In this document: positions 45,373-55,578 of the stretch, in pieces
How positions within the stretch are numbered: the first letter of the stretch is position 1
Layout of the letters: the number at the start of each line of letters is the position of its first letter
Source of the DNA: a virus
Reading direction: 5' to 3' (one strand)
IMG/VR virus record: IMGVR_UViG_3300029957_000006
Location: 60,455-124,454 of that record
DNA length: 64,000 bases
Made by a program: the position numbers and the translations under genes
Notes under the pieces: model-generated
Told to the model about the DNA's origin: nothing
Databases searched by the model: none
Seen by the model: the letters and a program-made list of their open reading frames with translations, nothing else

Positions 45373-46638
45373 TTAGTTCAGTTCCAACAGATGACTGATG
45401 GTACATTGTTTTGTATTGTAAAGCACATATTCATTATTGATAAGATCATAACCACCCTTAGCGAATACACTGTCATATCCTTCTCTTTTTAATTGACTTT
45501 CACAAAGCGAATAACAACTTGATGTATGATGAAGGATTTCTTTTTGATTTCCTAAATGAGAATCATATAGTGCTATATAACCTTTGTTTGAACTTCCTTT
45601 GGTCCAATATGAACCTTTTAATGATGAATAACCACGTGCCTTTTGTGCTTTATCAGCAAGGTAAATTCCATCACCAAACATACTGCCAGTATGAACTGCT
45701 CCAGCTGGTCGAATTAGTATTCCTGATTGAAGTAAGTTGAACCAATTTTCATTTCTTGAACCATGAAAATAAAGTCGTTTCTTTTTAACTTTTGCATTTG
45801 TGACAAACTTATCAAATGTATCCTTTGTCTTCGGATTATTAACTCTGAAGATACGTTTAACTTGATCTTTACTAGAACCCAATAACTTATAAATAAGTTC
45901 AAGCATCTTAGGGTCTTTTTCAACTTCAATACTCACACCCATTTGATCAAGAATGGTTGATCCAGCATTATTAGTTTTATTAACTAGTGTTGCCTTTTGT
46001 TTCAAAAGCTTTACCTGACCAGCCATTGTATCTAACGTGTCCTGTTCATTTCCAATTAATTCTTTTGCTATTTTAAGGGTATTAGAATTAGTGATTGGCT
46101 CAAATAGATGATCACGTACATCTTTCATCTTTCTAGGGATGGTGATGTAAAGTTTCATTAACAAATCATTCAATATTTTCAAATCAACACCAACCTTCAA
46201 AATTTTATTGATTGAATCGATAACATCTTGAGCTGTATTAACTTGTTGTTCAGATACTGCTTCTTGTGTTACCTTATAGTTTTGTTGAATAGATTTATTT
46301 GCAAAATTCATCAAATCTTCAATCAAAGCTCTTACATCCTTGTCTTGAATATCAACAGTCTTGCTACCATTGGCATTGTTGACTGGTTCAACCATCAAAT
46401 CAGTTACATCAGTATAACCTTTAGTCTTACTAAGCTTCTGTTTGTAAACTGAATCCCATTTGGATTTATCCTTGTATTCAGTTGTTAGTTCTTTTCCAAC
46501 ACGCCCATAATCACAACGAATTCTTCCATCTGGAAGTTCTTCCATTATGTAAACCTTATTACTATTGCCTGTCTTACCATTATCAACACTGACATGAATA
46601 AGCTTAGCATATCTTAAACCGTTTTCTTTGAGGATCAT
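45373..46638 (-). CDS. PARP-like ADP-ribosyltransferase (WGR + regulatory + catalytic domains)
   Basis: NKVY..YGRVG (WGR); FHGSR, GSMFGDGIYLA, GY, NNEYVLY (H-Y-E triad). Confidence 0.88.
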   Translation of the reverse strand: MILKENGLRYAKLIHVSVDNGKTGNSNKVYIMEELPDGRIRCDYGRVGKELTTEYKDKSKWDSVYKQKLSKTKGYTDVTDLMVEPVNNANGSKTVDIQDKDVRALIEDLMNFANKSIQQNYKVTQEAVSEQQVNTAQDVIDSINKILKVGVDLKILNDLLMKLYITIPRKMKDVRDHLFEPITNSNTLKIAKELIGNEQDTLDTMAGQVKLLKQKATLVNKTNNAGSTILDQMGVSIEVEKDPKMLELIYKLLGSSKDQVKRIFRVNNPKTKDTFDKFVTNAKVKKKRLYFHGSRNENWFNLLQSGILIRPAGAVHTGSMFGDGIYLADKAQKARGYSSLKGSYWTKGSSNKGYIALYDSHLGNQKEILHHTSSCYSLCESQLKREGYDSVFAKGGYDLINNEYVLYNTKQCTISHLLELN

Positions 46639-47594
46639 GATTACTCAGTCATATAAGTTTGAATAGTATGAACACCAGTTTTAAGCTCAATCAAATCTGA
46701 TGTCTTAACATCATTATGTCCAGCTTCTTTAAGCAATTTCTTAGCTGAAACCTTATTAATTGCAATTACAATAATTTCTGTATCTGTAATTGCCCAAGGA
46801 TCAGTATTTTTGATCGTATAATGAAATGTTTTCATGATTGTTTATTAATGTACAAAGGTAGTAAAAAAAATTCATTAAACCAAACCTTTTTTCATACTAT
46901 CCAGATATGGCTTACATATATCAGCTGGACCTTCATTAAAAAAATTCATATTTGGTGTAATCGTTTTTATCGGTTCATCTCTGAAATTAACTTCTTTTTT
47001 TGGTAATGGTTTAGGTTCTTCTTTTTTATCCGAACCCTTAAGCATTTCTGGTCTGTTCTCTTGCACCCAAGCAAGATAAGATGGTTGATTATTCAACAAC
47101 CACCCAATTGTCTTACCAGCATGCTTACCACTCCTTAAAACAAATTCATTATTCATTTTATTCCTACCAATTCTTAGTTACATCATCAAAAAGGTTAGGA
47201 TTCTTTATGATCCAATTATAAAAAAGAGATTGCATTTCTGGTGGTACCATGTTTCCATTAATATATACCACATCAGTTACAATCTCAATTTCTTGATGAG
47301 CTGGAAGGGGCATTCCTTTACCTACTTCAGCAGCTTCTTTTAATCTATACACTCTATTTGTTATCATATTGCAAATATACTAATAAAATAATTCATTTGC
47401 AACTATTAAACAAAAAGAGCCCTATCAAGGACTCAAATTGTTATCAGCAAAGGGACCGATAATTATTAATACAAAGATACTACTTTTTTATTAATCTAGC
47501 AATTTTATTTTTCAAAGATGGTTAAGTTTTATTAAATTCCTATATGGAGTTATAAAATAAATAATCAAAATGGTGTCAAAACGCCATAGTAATA

Positions 47595-48416
47595 GTTGTG
47601 ATTCCCTTTTAGAAGAATAAAAAAAACGTCACAATAAGCAGAAAGATCAAGGTGGGTGTTGTGATTCCTTTATGGAATTATAGAATAATTAATTCATCTG
47701 TGATAAAAGCAGATGTATTACCATTGTGATTCCAATATGGATTAATATAATTACTAACTAGTCTTAATTGTCAAATTCAAATACTAGCATTGTGATTCCC
47801 TACGGAATAATATAATTACTAACAAATTACCCTTAGATTCATCAAATCGATTGTTGTGATTCCCCTACAGAACGATATAATTACCAACTTTTATTAATCT
47901 AGGAACTTGGATTAATCTGTTGTGATTCCTCTACGGAATGATATAATTATCAACTTTAACAACTGGAACTACAATTACAATTGGGTTGTGATTCCCCTAT
48001 GGAATGATATAATTATCAACTACTGTTAAGAACTAATTCAGAACTCTGAAGTTGTGATTCCCTTACGGAATAATATAATTACCAACTAGATTAGAGTGAG
48101 TGTCAAGGTAATCCTTGTTGTGATTCCCTTACGGAATAATATAATTACCAACTAAACCAATTGATGTATGGGAGGCTTATTAGTTGTGATTCCCTTACGG
48201 AATAATATAATTACCAACCTTTTTGTTTTAAACGTTGAATCGATTTGTGTTGTGATTCCCTTACGGAATAATATAATTACCAACTATTGGTTTCCATTTG
48301 TTGAGTGTTGCTAAGTTGTGATTCCCTTACGGAATAATATAATTACCAACAGCGTTTTGAAATAATTGCTTAAGCCTTTTGTTGTGATTCCCTTACGGAA
48401 TAATATAATTACCAAC
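47595..48416 (-). CRISPR. CRISPR array: about 13 repeats of 36 nt, 29-30 nt spacers
   Basis: Plus-strand repeat GTTGTGATTCCCTTACGGAATAATATAATTACCAAC, identical at 48051, 48117, 48183, 48249, 48315, 48381 and progressively degenerate toward 47595. Confidence 0.97.
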
Positions 48417-48494
48417 CTATCTCAAGTTAAATATTTGATATTAATTGATTTAGGTTATTTTATTAAAAATAATATGTCAAAGAACTTGTATAAA
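48417..48494 (-). promoter_or_regulatory. CRISPR leader with boxA-like element (48474-48486)
   Basis: AT-rich; adjacent to the undegenerate repeats; minus-strand AGTTCTTTGACAT. Confidence 0.6.
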
Positions 48495-53478: not shown

Positions 53479-53820
53479 ATGAAAGACAATAAACACATAA
53501 GTATTGCCATTGATCCAGATATCATTAAACTATTAGATAAAGGTGACTATAATAAATCCAAGCTTATTGATGGATTATTGACTAAGTACTTTAAAAATAA
53601 AAATCGCCAAAAAGCGACTTTTTCTAAAAAGTAACATATTTATTAGTATATAAACAATACTAATATGGGACGAAACAAAAAGTCAAAAGAAGAAAAGAAA
53701 GGTAAATTAAGCATATCCATCTCCACCATCAATTTCCAACAAATGGAACAGGATGGAATTAATAAGTCACGACTAATTAATTGGTTGTTAGAACAGCATT
53801 TTAATGATATTAAAAAGTAA
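53479..53820 (+). CDS. Two tandem 51-aa RHH-like ORFs (53479-53634, 53665-53820)
   Basis: HISIAID...NKSKLIDGLL and KLSISIS...NKSRLINWLL; duplicated at 62764-63112. Confidence 0.6.
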
Positions 53821-54548
53821 TGTTTTATACCGTATATAAAACCACCAATATAATCAATAATAAGATTTATATTGGTCTTCATGAAACTGAAGACCTTGAT
53901 GATTCTTATTTAGGTTCTGGTATCTTATTAAAACAATCCATCAAGAAATACGGTTCTAATAACTTTAAAAAAGAAATTCTATTTGTTTATAATAACAAAA
54001 CAGAAATGATTAATAAAGAGAAAGAACTGGTCTCAGAAGCTTTTATTAACAGACGAGATACATATAATCTATCTAAGGGTGGGTTTGGTATGTCTACGTT
54101 ACCAGAACACGTTAAAATGAAAGCAATTGCTAAAATGAAAAGAACGAAACAATCACAAGACTTAACTATTATATCTGAAAAGAGAATCAAGACCATGTTA
54201 GCCGAAGACCCAGATTGTTTTAGTAAGTTAGCTGCTAAATCAGCTACCAAACAAAAAGATAATTATTTAAAAGGTTATGTTAATCCTAAACAAAGATTAG
54301 ATGATGTTATTATCTATAATCAATATGATGAAGTTATGTACCAATGTCAACGTATTGATTTAACAACGTTATGTACTAAACATGATTTACCTATTCGTGT
54401 TCTTATTAAATCAATACAGAATAAAGGCTTACCATTATATACAACACAAGCTCCTAGAAAAGAAGCTTATGTTAAATATACAGGTTGGTATGCAATTTAC
54501 GGAAACGATTTAACTAAACCTTTTCTTGGTCAAAGAAATAACGTCTAG
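53820..54548 (+). CDS. GIY-YIG (Seg-like) homing endonuclease
   Basis: VYKTTN...YIGLH...YLGSG, YNLSKGG. Confidence 0.8.
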   Translation: MFYTVYKTTNIINNKIYIGLHETEDLDDSYLGSGILLKQSIKKYGSNNFKKEILFVYNNKTEMINKEKELVSEAFINRRDTYNLSKGGFGMSTLPEHVKMKAIAKMKRTKQSQDLTIISEKRIKTMLAEDPDCFSKLAAKSATKQKDNYLKGYVNPKQRLDDVIIYNQYDEVMYQCQRIDLTTLCTKHDLPIRVLIKSIQNKGLPLYTTQAPRKEAYVKYTGWYAIYGNDLTKPFLGQRNNV

Positions 54549-55578
54549 CTATTTCAGACACATATTTAGATACATCTTTTGGTTCTAAACCAGCTTCAAC
54601 TAAGATATCTAAATCTTCTTTAAGCACATCATCCATAACCAACTTAAGATATATACCTAACTTAGCTCTATCAAGTTCACCACCATTCATTAAATCACAT
54701 GATTTTTCAATCATTTGATCAAGTCTCCAATTTGGTGTTACTTTATCAGCAATCTCTCTAGCTTTTGTTATTTTAACATCATCAACTTTACTTAGTGTTT
54801 TTACTTTAGATTTAGCAGCATGAAGTGATCCCTTTACTTTGAATCTATGAACGACTCCATTGAATTCACAAGCCCATACAATACCTTCACCAACACCAGA
54901 AAAACCAAATGCTTTCGCAACAGGACATTCTTCTTCCACTTCAAGCGTTAATTCGCCTAACTTGTTTTGAACCATTTCTGGATAATTGAAATCGATCTCA
55001 ATGCTGAAGGTTTTGTAATCACTGATATTGTAAACCTTATTTGCTGGTGATTTTAAATAAGTATGATCAACCCAGTATGCTACTGGTGGTTTTTCATTTA
55101 CTGCTAATTCTTCACCAACAAAGTGTGGTGTAATCTTAACACCAAAGATGAAAAATGATTTTTCAAGATTGCAAATTCCAACACCTTTTTGAATGTTACC
55201 ACCACACCATTCTCCATAAATAGAAATAGTATTTTGATCCATATCAAGATTGTTTTTAACCATGATTTCAGCCATTAAGGTTGAAAATACACCTTGATTA
55301 GATACAACAAAAAATGCAAATCCAGCATTATCTTGTTCTGGCGTAATAATGTTCTCACGTGATTGAATCCAAAGACCATCAATACGATTGTAACAAATAC
55401 TAGCGTTGGTTCCATGAAGCTTTACACTACCAGTAAAGGTAAGCTTAGGCTTAATCTTATTATGATCATAGATAGCATCACCATTGTCATCTAATCCAAC
55501 AAAATTAAATTGTCGGTTGATATTGGTAACAACATTTCTGAATTGTTCGATACTTGGGAAGCTAATGTGCTTTTTCAT
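54514..55578 (-). CDS. RNA ligase 2 family protein
   Basis: VKLHGTN, YGEWCG, GEGIVW, FKVKG. Confidence 0.75.
   Translation of the reverse strand: MKKHISFPSIEQFRNVVTNINRQFNFVGLDDNGDAIYDHNKIKPKLTFTGSVKLHGTNASICYNRIDGLWIQSRENIITPEQDNAGFAFFVVSNQGVFSTLMAEIMVKNNLDMDQNTISIYGEWCGGNIQKGVGICNLEKSFFIFGVKITPHFVGEELAVNEKPPVAYWVDHTYLKSPANKVYNISDYKTFSIEIDFNYPEMVQNKLGELTLEVEEECPVAKAFGFSGVGEGIVWACEFNGVVHRFKVKGSLHAAKSKVKTLSKVDDVKITKAREIADKVTPNWRLDQMIEKSCDLMNGGELDRAKLGIYLKLVMDDVLKEDLDILVEAGLEPKDVSKYVSEIARRYFFDQEKV

Follow-up and report, generated by a model that had tools for sequence, protein, structure and literature searches.

A compact type I CRISPR system of a huge-phage lineage with a type II-C-format array that host Cas1-Cas2 might load with spacers

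The large soil phage analyzed here, represented by a window of 64,000 nucleotides from the 124,454-bp IMG/VR record IMGVR_UViG_3300029957_000006, carries a CRISPR array that looks functional and, judging by sequence comparison, is part of a lineage of reduced type I systems found in huge phages. Given that no spacer-inserting enzyme is detected and that the layout of the array is that of type II-C, we infer that a host enzyme probably writes the targets, and the best reading, which we hold with about even confidence, is that host type II-C Cas1-Cas2 loads the phage array. In the proposed mechanism, the interference steps of which follow what is known of the family, the array would be co-transcribed with the cas operon, Cas6 would cut at the 3' base of a small hairpin, leaving an invariant 8-nt 5' handle, AUCACAAC, Cas5, Cas7 and Cas6 would assemble on the crRNA, and Cas3 would degrade DNA targets with a GG (CC) PAM. 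An integrase of the host that measures 36/30, in all likelihood a type II-C Cas1-Cas2, would act in trans to add new spacers.

If this reading is correct, the adaptation module would be common to different CRISPR classes as well as to virus and host, and the memory-writing enzyme of a bacterium would arm a phage weapon aimed at competing elements. The repeat would be split in two, with the ends and the length serving a foreign integrase, and the hairpin and the handle serving the phage's own Cas6 and Cascade. Because the system is compact (four genes, ∼4.9 kb) and the lineage is widespread, it could become a tractable model for the tolerance of II-C Cas1-Cas2 to foreign leaders and repeats.

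Organization of the array and the effector operon

An ungapped scan of the whole record recovered a single array (Table 1), in the position, on the strand and with the 36-nt repeat given by the original prediction, and no further repeat copy outside the array on either strand. The mismatches to the 36-nt consensus are, in unit order, 0, 0, 0, 0, 0, 0, 4, 4, 4, 10, 6, 8 and 10, a unit scored at 10 mismatches being in fact 35 nt long, having lost a single base. The six repeats on the cas6 side (R1-R6) are identical and R7-R13 decay, so that the polarized decay described originally is evident and runs away from cas6. R7-R10 have two positions in common at which they depart from the R1-R6 block, the pattern that is expected if each insertion copies the first repeat. 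The period is 66 across the first nine units, followed by 65, 65, 65 and 63, and accordingly, 8 of the 12 spacers are exactly 30 nt long, with 27-30 nt in the decayed tail, in agreement with the near-uniform spacers originally described. Logan contigs end within the perfect repeats of the array, and the exact repeat was unmatched in IMG/VR and JGI metagenome contigs, in searches from which near-identical records may have been withheld. The leader of the window has no stable fold (z +0.43) and contains only a weak promoter-like site (9/12). Strong leader hairpins are present in several relatives and absent from the window.

Table 1. Coordinates of the array, its surroundings and the effector genes in the window
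Feature	Coordinates	Strand	Remarks
Terminator-like hairpin and T run, past the array	47417..47434	-	consensus scan only
CRISPR array	47595..48416	-	13 repeats, 12 spacers
Spacer 1, newest	48351..48380	-	perfect protospacer in a co-occurring contig
Leader	48417..48494	-	78 AT-rich nt from the cas6 stop to repeat 1; read from sequence
cas6, 234 aa	48495..49199	-	generic or Cas6b-like
cas5fv-like subunit, 280 aa	49201..50043	-	fold only
cas7fv-like backbone subunit, 362 aa	50018..51106	-	NCBIfam and PDB profile matches
cas3, 753 aa	51143..53404	-	HD nuclease and helicase, no Cas2 fusion

The 3' ATTCC/GGAAT hairpin that had been proposed as a Cas6 site is present, with its three inner pairs kept in all 14 distinct family repeats and one pair covarying among them (CG in 8, UA in 3, AU in 2 and UG in 1), but it is weak when judged solely by its folding energy (−4.4 kcal/mol, z −0.76), which 45 of 200 shuffles also reached. 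Over the same 14 repeats, 87% of the hairpin cells are paired compared with 80% in shuffles. As for the proposed GTTG..ACAAC ends, the 3' end holds up, given that AATCACAAC, together with the 36/30 format, is found throughout the phage lineage and is common to this lineage and II-C arrays, whereas the GTTG start is not conserved (20 of the 74 distinct family repeats). An Rfam search gave no match at the gathering score; one sub-threshold match, CRISPR-DR34 (22 of 35 bits, E 0.19), falls within the decayed end, on the plus strand.

Upstream of the array, in the order cas3-cas7-cas5-cas6-array, are four genes that are all of type I rather than the cas9-cas1-cas2 set. The cas3 product matches the Pfam families Cas3_HD (1.3e-10), DEAD (5.6e-8) and Cas3-like_C (9.9e-11) as well as the PADLOC model Cas3fv (5.5e-59, profile positions 320-801 of 951), and because the alignment starts at ∼320, the N-terminal part of this Cas2-3 model is absent. 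For Cas7, the match to the NCBIfam model NF040577 (Cas7fv, 5.3e-27) scores 95 bits, under the 200-bit cut-off, and the family profile matches the Cas7fv chain 5o6u_C in the PDB at 2.2e-27; on these profile comparisons, the phage protein is a homolog, but not an equivalog, of Cas7fv. Its homologs number 179 in a large protein database, many of them on 300-380 kb contigs, with none in 401 sampled Bacteroidota genomes.

The 280-aa protein has no family match by sequence in Pfam, NCBIfam or PADLOC, and the comparison of its sequence profile with the PDB was also empty, so that it is recognized, by fold only, as putatively Cas5fv-like. The best match of its AlphaFold model (pLDDT 78.7) among solved structures is 5o6u_F (Foldseek E 6.1e-4, Z 7.9, 131 residues aligned), followed by 9g44_B (Z 7.2) and then by Cas5 chains of other Cascades; these Z values are middling, and the Cas5fv-type matches are only ∼1 above the other Cas5 chains. 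Cas6 matches TIGR01877 (7.8e-21, over the cut-off) and PADLOC Cas6b (1.5e-38), and no Cas6f model in NCBIfam or PADLOC. There is no Cas8-sized ORF in the operon. Against 50,697 deposited phage genomes, the cas operon and array gave chance-level matches only (E of at least 0.8).

Spacer acquisition in a lineage without Cas1

The lineage is known from 25 IMG/VR records and 97 metagenome contigs from soil, water and brine samples, and an array is present at 22 of the 25 IMG/VR loci. In the closest relatives, one of which is on a 363,897-bp contig, Cas7 is 79-90% identical to that of the window. The 18 arrays from relatives with Cas7 identity of at least ∼29% share the period of 66 and the AATCACAAC end, and 707 of the 829 family spacers are 30 nt long. 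More distant relatives of the effector have 28-nt repeats, the length found in I-F style arrays, and spacers of 32-34 nt. In line with the original prediction, the 36/30 format is not that of I-F or I-E relatives.

The predicted lack of cas1 and cas2 in the window extends to the whole 124-kb record (∼35% complete according to CheckV), in which neither Cas1 (PF01867) nor Cas2 (PF09827) is matched, although PF09827 misses some Cas2 families and left an Escherichia coli control unmatched. Among the 25 related records, Cas1 was detected in one (G019) and in none of the seven with a completeness of 90% or more, among them G001 and G002, the complete relatives nearest to the window (Cas7 63% and 56% identical). 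The search with PF09827 for Cas2 was negative in 26 records, and the tblastn search for Cas9 and type II Cas1 was negative at 96 metagenome family loci. A tracrRNA anti-repeat was sought as a second repeat copy with at most 13 mismatches of 36 on both strands of the 124 kb, a threshold that would miss an anti-repeat of lesser length or greater divergence, and was not found. It is quite improbable that the ∼65% of the genome outside the record encodes a cas1-cas2 pair. The incompleteness of the record leaves room for such genes, and G019 is a fragment with a Cas1e-like gene adjoining the array; however, this fragment belongs to the 28-nt-repeat branch, the relatives that are nearly complete have no Cas1, and adaptation genes normally adjoin the array, which is not the case here.

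In at least six lineages, the old, trailer-end spacers are common to related arrays whereas the spacers at the leader (cas6) end are unique (L011/L013/L020, L156/L187/L225, L008/L200/L221, and also L184/L234, L176/L218 and L194/L198), which implies that spacers are still being added; these examples of spacer turnover come mostly from incomplete records. The ongoing acquisition that had been deduced from the decay of the repeats is thus supported by growth at the leader end in a lineage with complete genomes without Cas1. Arrays of the lineage gain spacers even though its complete genomes lack Cas1, as would be expected of adaptation in trans.

Under an alternative of low probability, the guides are static and inherited, and the arrays differ owing to deletion or recombination between co-infecting phages. 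This would account for the internal deletion in L013, which lacks spacers 5-8 of L011, for the shuffled spacer order in the L154 group, and for the newest spacers of five relatives, which matched only their own arrays in IMG/VR. It does not readily explain why unique spacers accumulate at the leader end, with the trailer spacers in common, in all these lineages, why the newest spacer of the window perfectly matches a co-occurring contig, or why there are six identical leader-side repeats, which fit serial copying of repeat 1.

Relationship with cellular type II-C arrays

A scan of cellular sequences for the 9-mer AATCACAAC at a period of 65-67 yielded at least 120 loci. Among the matches listed, all 120 loci have 36-nt repeats, 64 of the 120 encode type II Cas1 (2e-87) and/or Cas9 (4.4e-182), and only one, L107, has phage-type cas genes. 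With the exception of L089, the cellular order is cas9-cas1-cas2-array, the decayed repeats are at the far end only, as in the phage, and 1,630 of the 2,139 cellular spacers are 30 nt long. The phage array agrees with these in repeat length, in its 30-nt spacers, in ending with AATCACAAC and in its orientation towards the cas genes, so that the assignment of the 36/30 geometry to the II-C format is supported; the phage and cellular arrays also share a spacer length of 30 ± 1 nt and an N-N-T-G/A-T-like repeat start. In contrast to the cellular repeats, the phage repeat has a Cas6-type mini-hairpin in its interior, and transcription of the phage array starts on the leader side, in contrast to the reported reading of II-C arrays towards the leader (PMC8092290). 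Comparison of the phage and II-C leaders by eye revealed no common junction motif.

The likely host phylum of the phage is Bacteroidota. Type II Cas1 is common there, being encoded in 69 of the 401 sampled Bacteroidota genomes, and arrays with the exact motif are rare, being present in 4 of the 401, one of these being the center genome, which was chosen for having such an array. The notion that a 36-nt repeat is typical of Bacteroidota II-C arrays was not supported: this is a minority length, seen in 3 of the 17 Bacteroidota type II arrays examined, with 46-47-nt repeats in the other 14. The repeats most similar to those of the phage come from the L107 and L053 MAGs, in which no type II Cas1 was found above the cut-off. 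The scarcity of exact-motif arrays, the minority status of 36-nt repeats and the missing type II Cas1 in these MAGs count against loading by a host II-C enzyme. An unannotated 1,075-aa ORF of L118 matched nothing in NCBIfam or PADLOC, and a 1,163-aa protein cluster, whose reading frame in L097 is antisense to cas9 and inside it, has no Pfam or NCBIfam match and was dismissed as spurious.

The likeness to II-C could reflect shared descent only, a rather unlikely alternative in which a II-C or VI-B type locus was the original source of the array and perhaps of cas6, the 3' end became frozen as the Cascade handle, and some other integrase, either one of another type from the host or an unrecognized one of the phage, adds the spacers. 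Even where the Cas7 proteins of two phages are about 30-40% identical, their 9-mers do not differ, as expected of a protein-bound handle, and the handle-binding proteins of the phage alone could hold AATCACAAC invariant. Across the lineage, the start of the repeat is freely variable, and so is the leader. Array exchange is hinted at by L194, with a repeat 1 nt from that of the window in spite of a Cas7 identity of only 40%, and the sole PAM observed is of the type I-F kind. On the other hand, spacer length is set by the integrase, and the length of 30 ± 1 nt, skewed to 29, fits II-C and is unlike the 32-34 nt of the relatives with 28-nt repeats; furthermore, none of the seven complete genomes has any Cas1. 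Loading by host II-C Cas1-Cas2, the reading that we prefer, draws on the II-C format, the Cas1-less relatives, the growing arrays and the laboratory precedent discussed below; the integration by the host is the part that we infer, and the originally predicted borrowing of host machinery is, in our estimate, about as probable as its opposite.

Spacer targets and PAM

The target of the newest spacer is on a contig from runs X2 and X12 (1,483 nt in X12) that matches positions 48351-48381 and lies outside any array. The spacer match is followed by a G on the plus strand, which places GG beside the leader-proximal end or, in the crRNA sense, CC 5' of this one protospacer. A GG/CC flank is the type I-F PAM and would not be expected from a Cas9-guided integrase, a point against II-C loading that comes from a single protospacer. 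Outside arrays, neither the record nor the other loci gave a match to any of 2,105 cellular II-C spacers or of 199 spacers from the phage family; apart from array self-matches, 1,050 spacers compared with ∼2 Mb gave only two old ones, of L018 and L022, each with 2 mismatches to the locus from which it came. The mapping of spacers that had been suggested as a check thus produced one perfect target with a GG flank, whereas the other spacer screens produced no outside target.

Possible antisense reading of the array

Every well-kept repeat contains, on the plus strand and pointing towards the leader, a promoter-like match, TTGTGA-N16-TATAAT (10/12), which suggests dual use of the array: read antisense from these repeat-internal promoters, it would give II-C-format spacer-plus-repeat RNAs that could load host Cas9. 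The direction and layout are as reported for II-C arrays (PMC8092290), and the conserved 9-mer would start the repeat part of such an RNA. Even so, we consider this highly improbable: within the family, conservation of the −10 part is only partial, there is no anti-repeat-like copy in the record, the scan having given no match on the plus strand and only the array on the minus strand, and the cellular repeats share only the 9 nt. With a DNA that is 70% A+T, the promoter match may be due to chance. A run search placed the phage in 21 rhizosphere runs and listed the locus in no RNA run. Hardly less improbable is a composite scheme with chimeric repeats that serve two CRISPR classes, in which the 9 invariant nucleotides at the leader-distal end would double as the Cascade 5' handle and as the end read by host II-C, spacers would come from the II-C integrase of the host, and both strands would be read, with the antisense guides also arming host Cas9 against the rivals of the phage.

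Comparison with known systems

The type I-F2 (I-Fv) system of Shewanella putrefaciens CN-32 (PDB 5O6U; PMC4937334) has the same gene order as the phage system and likewise lacks the large and small subunits; Cas7 is homologous, 5o6u_F is the nearest fold for Cas5, and the GG PAM is consistent with the one phage protospacer. The phage system differs in that its Cas3 carries no Cas2 fusion, Cas1 is missing from the 35%-complete record, Cas6 is Cas6b-like rather than Cas6f, the array is 36/30 with the predicted handle AUCACAAC compared with 32-nt spacers in I-F2, and the carriers are huge phages. Compact arrays without Cas1, Cas2 and Cas4, some with host-like repeats, have been described in huge phages (Al-Shayeb et al. 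2020, PMC7162821), and the sections consulted deal with class 2 systems and with a variant of type I-C, but mention no Cas7fv-type effector on II-C-format arrays. A literature search returned no earlier description of such a phage system or of its loading by a host II-C enzyme.

The prediction that II-C Cas1-Cas2 can serve a foreign 36-nt array in trans has an experimental precedent: in Flavobacterium columnare, VI-B acquisition requires the II-C Cas1, with repeat similarity at the leader-distal end (PMC8092290). Both the VI-B array and the phage array lack cas1, have a 36-nt repeat that is II-C-like mainly leader-distally, are read from the leader and acquire spacers. The VI-B case is confined to one cell and to class 2 and is proven by cas1 deletion, compared with the phage array, which is known from sequence alone and belongs with a PAM-dependent effector of class 1. 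A promiscuous II-C Cas1-2 is also described, in a preprint, as loading VI-A arrays (bioRxiv 10.1101/2024.10.25.620265), and loading of the phage array would, by analogy, parallel these cas1-less VI-B and VI-A arrays. Among mobile elements, type IV-A3 plasmids acquire spacers via host I-E adaptation, as summarized in a review (Benz et al. 2024, in review PMC11656645). Like the phage, for which use of the host enzyme is the predicted state, they combine an effector and an array with no integrase of their own and use that of the host; in the review's summary, the IV-A3 element is a plasmid rather than a phage, the pairing is class 1 to class 1, and there is no nuclease.

CRISPR array and cas operon

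Across all 124,454 bp of the record, an ungapped scan of both strands located 13 copies of the repeat, every one of them within the array. The array is confirmed as originally predicted, with 36-nt repeats on the minus strand, near-uniform 30-nt spacers and polarized decay. The six repeats nearest to cas6 (R1–R6, numbered from the leader) are identical, R7–R9 have four differing positions each, R10 has lost one base, and R11–R13 show 6, 8 and 10 differences, respectively; of the 12 spacers, eight have a length of exactly 30 nt and the four in the decayed tail measure 27–30 nt. A C at position 15 is common to R7–R9 and a G at position 24 to R7–R10, and because both states are missing from R1–R6, the array combines an older type of repeat with a six-copy leader-side block of a newer one, the pattern expected if every insertion copies the first repeat. 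The repeat of two metagenome loci, L194 and L198, is one base apart from that of the window, with C for T at position 15, the state of the older R7–R9. Despite this, the Cas7 proteins of L194 and the window are only 40% identical, so that the near-identity of the repeats may be due to strong constraint or to an exchange of arrays.

Features of the window array, its surroundings and related loci
Feature	Sequence	Position	Strand	Basis
CRISPR array, 13 x 36-nt repeat, 12 spacers	window	48416-47595	minus	sequence, ungapped scan
Terminator-like hairpin, 3' of array	window	47434-47417	minus	terminator-like pattern
Promoter-like sites in well-kept repeats	window	47854-48409	plus	sigma-70-like motif
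Spacer 1 plus one base	window	48351-48381		perfect match to metagenome contig
PARP-like ADP-ribosyltransferase domain protein, locus neighbour	window	45373-46638		domain match, 1e-22
GIY-YIG homing-endonuclease-like gene, locus neighbour	window	53820-54548
Rnl2-like RNA ligase, locus neighbour	window	54514-55578
Cas1e-like gene	L019	12668-13486		2.5e-44
Self-match of spacer 8	L018	5652-5682		2 mismatches
Self-match of spacer 2	L022	5934-5961		2 mismatches

Four genes lie directly upstream of the array on the same strand. Cas3 (753 aa) combines an HD domain with a helicase; among PADLOC models it matches Cas3fv best (5.5e-59), but the N-terminal third of this Cas2-3 model is missing from it. 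The 362-aa protein is, judging by its profile matches, a Cas7fv homologue (NF040577, 5.3e-27, under the curated cut-off; PDB 5o6u_C, 2.2e-27 with the family profile). For the 280-aa protein, no family was found by sequence; the top fold matches of its structural model (pLDDT 78.7) are in the I-Fv Cascade (chain F, 336 residues, Z 7.9) and in 9G44, an I-F2 complex (chain B, Z 7.2), with Cas5 chains of other Cascades about 1 Z unit below the best matches, which lends moderate support to a putative Cas5fv-like subunit. The 234-aa Cas6 has profile matches of the generic Cas6b kind and none to Cas6f. There is no Cas8-sized ORF in the operon. The identity of the system is well supported.

Array format across the phage lineage

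Arrays are present in 22 of the 25 related loci gathered from IMG/VR records with the Cas7 profile. In 18 of the 22, from relatives whose Cas7 is at least about 29% identical, the period is 66 and the repeats end in AATCACAAC, so that the format belongs to the lineage, beyond the window phage; cas6 immediately precedes 17 of these arrays, and the remaining one (L006) is upstream of cas3. The first four repeat bases vary (GTTG, ATTG, ACTG, CCTG, GATA, AGTA, GGTG), and the GTTG start, once taken as typifying, is not conserved, occurring in 20 of 74 distinct family repeats, a set whose metagenome portion was chosen by the 3' 12-mer. The arrays of four distant relatives (L019 and L023–L025, Cas7 28–33% identical) have ∼28-nt repeats ending in ATTGAAA and periods of ∼60–71. 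Strong hairpins occur in the 78 nt before repeat 1 in L001, L002, L003, L005 and L011 (z from -1.9 to -5.2; -25.9 kcal/mol in L011), no more than ∼10 nt away from the first repeat in all of these except L005, where the hairpin is farther upstream; its sequence is not conserved among relatives, and the window leader has none.

Metagenome contigs were likewise scanned for the 12-mer at period 66, which yielded 97 loci, 96 of them with arrays. Phage-type genes were found in 58 of the 96 (45 of 57 among loci with at least 700 nt upstream), and tblastn detected Cas9 or type II Cas1 in none of the 96. Five of the contigs (L158, L162, L240, L212 and L236) contain mini-arrays with two to three copies of a different 36-nt repeat that likewise has the end GGGGAATCACAAC; these are surrounded by small genes, with no ORF above ∼930 aa within up to 14 kb and no match to six Cas queries, and may be orphan mini-arrays of other viruses.

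The predicted absence of cas1 and cas2 from the window extends to the whole 124-kb record, where neither Cas1 (PF01867) nor Cas2 (PF09827) was matched, the record being 35% complete according to CheckV, with the window as its second half. This estimate implies a full genome of ∼355 kb; of 179 Cas7 homologues in a large protein database, many are on 300–380 kb contigs, and the locus is present in 21 rhizosphere metagenome runs from 2019, filed under 21 studies but perhaps from one campaign. Cas1 was detected in one of the 25 related records, a 42-kb fragment from the distant 28-nt-repeat branch, and in none of the seven that are at least 90% complete. The Cas1 of this fragment is Cas1e-like and is encoded at locus L019, where its gene separates cas6 from the array; in the same branch, Cas1 was not found in G024, a record complete at 419 kb. 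PF09827 matched none of 26 records, but this profile is blind to some Cas2 families, so that only the Cas1 result carries weight. Excerpts from Al-Shayeb et al. 2020 (PMC7162821) state that Cas1, Cas2 and Cas4 are missing from nearly all CRISPR systems of huge phages and that the repeats of some resemble those of hosts. The effector Cas7 was found in none of 401 sampled Bacteroidota genomes, which fits a phage-borne lineage and gives no pointer to the host.

Type II-C arrays as the cellular counterpart

When one genome of each prokaryote species was scanned for three copies of AATCACAAC at a period of 65–67, at least 120 loci emerged, from Bacteroidota, Kiritimatiellia, Lentisphaerae, Gammaproteobacteria, Nitrospiria and others. 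The scan fixed the 9-mer and the period and left free the 36+30 split, the N-N-T-G/A-T-like start and the neighbours, and a 36-nt conserved block was present in all 120 loci listed. By ORF clustering and NCBIfam, type II Cas1 (TIGR03639, 2e-87) was identified in 60 of these 120, Cas9 (TIGR01865, 4.4e-182) in 55 and at least one of the two in 64. Among the remaining 56, most begin inside the array, with the cas side out of view; about a dozen show no cas9 or cas1 in over 2 kb of upstream sequence, and the large ORFs annotated in seven are ordinary genes or have no family match. The only listed locus with phage genes, L107, is on a 44-kb scaffold that binning placed in a Bacteroidetes MAG.

When the repeat is oriented as ...AATCACAAC, the listed loci follow the order cas9-cas1-cas2-array, with L089 as the sole exception, and decayed repeats are found solely at the far end, a polarity identical to that of the phage arrays. 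Spacer lengths agree closely, with 30 nt in 707 of 829 phage-family spacers (29 nt in 90, 31 nt in 29) and in 1,630 of 2,139 spacers of the listed cellular arrays (337 and 88, respectively). On these sequence features, the cellular counterpart of the phage array format is type II-C, and the II-C format of the phage array is well supported, so that the class 2-style format of the original prediction holds in its 36-nt repeat, 30-nt spacers, AATCACAAC end and polarity.

Type II Cas1 is encoded in 69 of the 401 sampled Bacteroidota genomes. Among 20 of these loci, fetched in listing order, 17 have arrays, all with 30-nt spacers and ACAAC-type ends, and with repeats of 46–47 nt in 14 and 36 nt in three; this agrees with the II-C repeats reported as ∼11 bp longer in eight other species in excerpts from Hoikkala et al. 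2021 (PMC8092290). In Flavobacterium columnare, according to the same excerpts, both II-C and VI-B repeats measure 36 bp, with a likeness that is mainly leader-distal (given there as GTTGT of the opposite strand), reading of the II-C array begins within the repeats and runs towards the leader, reading of the VI-B array begins at the leader, and experimental evidence, with a cas1 deletion mutant among the methods, indicates that VI-B spacers are acquired in trans via the II-C adaptation machinery. A promiscuous II-C Cas1-2 loads VI-A arrays in Listeria seeligeri, as described in a preprint (bioRxiv 10.1101/2024.10.25.620265). In-trans adaptation itself is an already known kind of mechanism; no description of a Cas7fv-type phage system on II-C-format arrays was found in the literature searched. 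The phage arrays share with VI-B arrays the 36-nt repeat, reading from the leader, the lack of an integrase and the conserved end, and so occupy the same position. In F. columnare, the II-C cas1 is reportedly needed for VI-B acquisition.

Spacer acquisition and its proposed source

Near-identical phages have trailer spacers in common and differ at the leader ends. L011 has three unique spacers ahead of the one common to its group, L013 has three others, and L020 has the oldest of those three with one of its own ahead; L156, L187 and L225 have 8, 8 and 5 unique spacers, respectively, ahead of a common last one, and the leader ends turn over likewise in L008/L200/L221, L184/L234, L176/L218 and L194/L198. 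Spacer deletions and reshuffling are seen as well. This turnover supports the view that arrays of the lineage are probably still acquiring spacers without a phage integrase; the records concerned are mostly fragments, so that cas1 may exist in those particular phages. One population (L154, L179, L184, L193, L207, L210, L234 and L237) has slightly degenerate repeats and many common spacers whose order is shuffled, which points to recombination among the arrays.

The explanation that fits best is that a host II-C Cas1-Cas2 loads the phage array, and we consider it about evenly poised between right and wrong. The borrowing of host adaptation machinery, as first proposed, draws support from the II-C format and from growth of the lineage's arrays without phage Cas1, whereas integration by the host enzymes is what we infer from them. 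Several observations count against such loading: none of 2,105 cellular II-C spacers matches the record, the MAGs with L107 and L053 (another cellular locus) have only non-type-II Cas1 matches, exact-motif arrays are rare (4 of the 401 sampled Bacteroidota, the centre genome included), the 36-nt class is a minority among the sampled Bacteroidota type II arrays, and inspection by eye revealed no junction motif common to phage and II-C leaders. Alternatively, the conserved 9-mer could be kept by the phage's own proteins.

A contig from X2 and X12, metagenome runs in which the window locus also occurs (1,483 nt in the X12 row), perfectly matches spacer 1, the newest, and one adjoining base, and differs from the window to either side of the match. 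Read on the plus strand, the spacer match is followed by G, G; the GG at the leader-proximal end equals CC 5' of the protospacer in the crRNA sense, the usual flank orientation for type I. In this single case, the GG flank agrees with the PAM reported for I-Fv in excerpts from PMC4937334; such a spacer suits the effector better than one chosen by Cas9 and argues mildly against Cas9-guided capture. Two old spacers, in L018 and L022, match their own loci outside the array, and both matches are without the CC flank.

Repeat hairpin and promoter-like sites within repeats

The ATTCC/GGAAT hairpin, predicted to suit Cas6, stands up in its pairing, with three inner stem pairs formed in all 14 distinct family repeats and one pair that covaries, but not in its folding energy, which is unremarkable (z -0.76). 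The stem stops immediately before the invariant AUCACAAC, and an 8-nt handle would result if Cas6 cleaved at the base of the stem.

Each well-kept repeat contains TTGTGA-N16-TATAAT, a sigma-70-like match (10 of 12), on the strand opposite to the cas operon and directed at the leader. Promoters within repeats directed at the leader are the layout reported for type II-C arrays in excerpts from PMC8092290; the sites seen here may be chance occurrences in AT-rich DNA, a relic, or functional.
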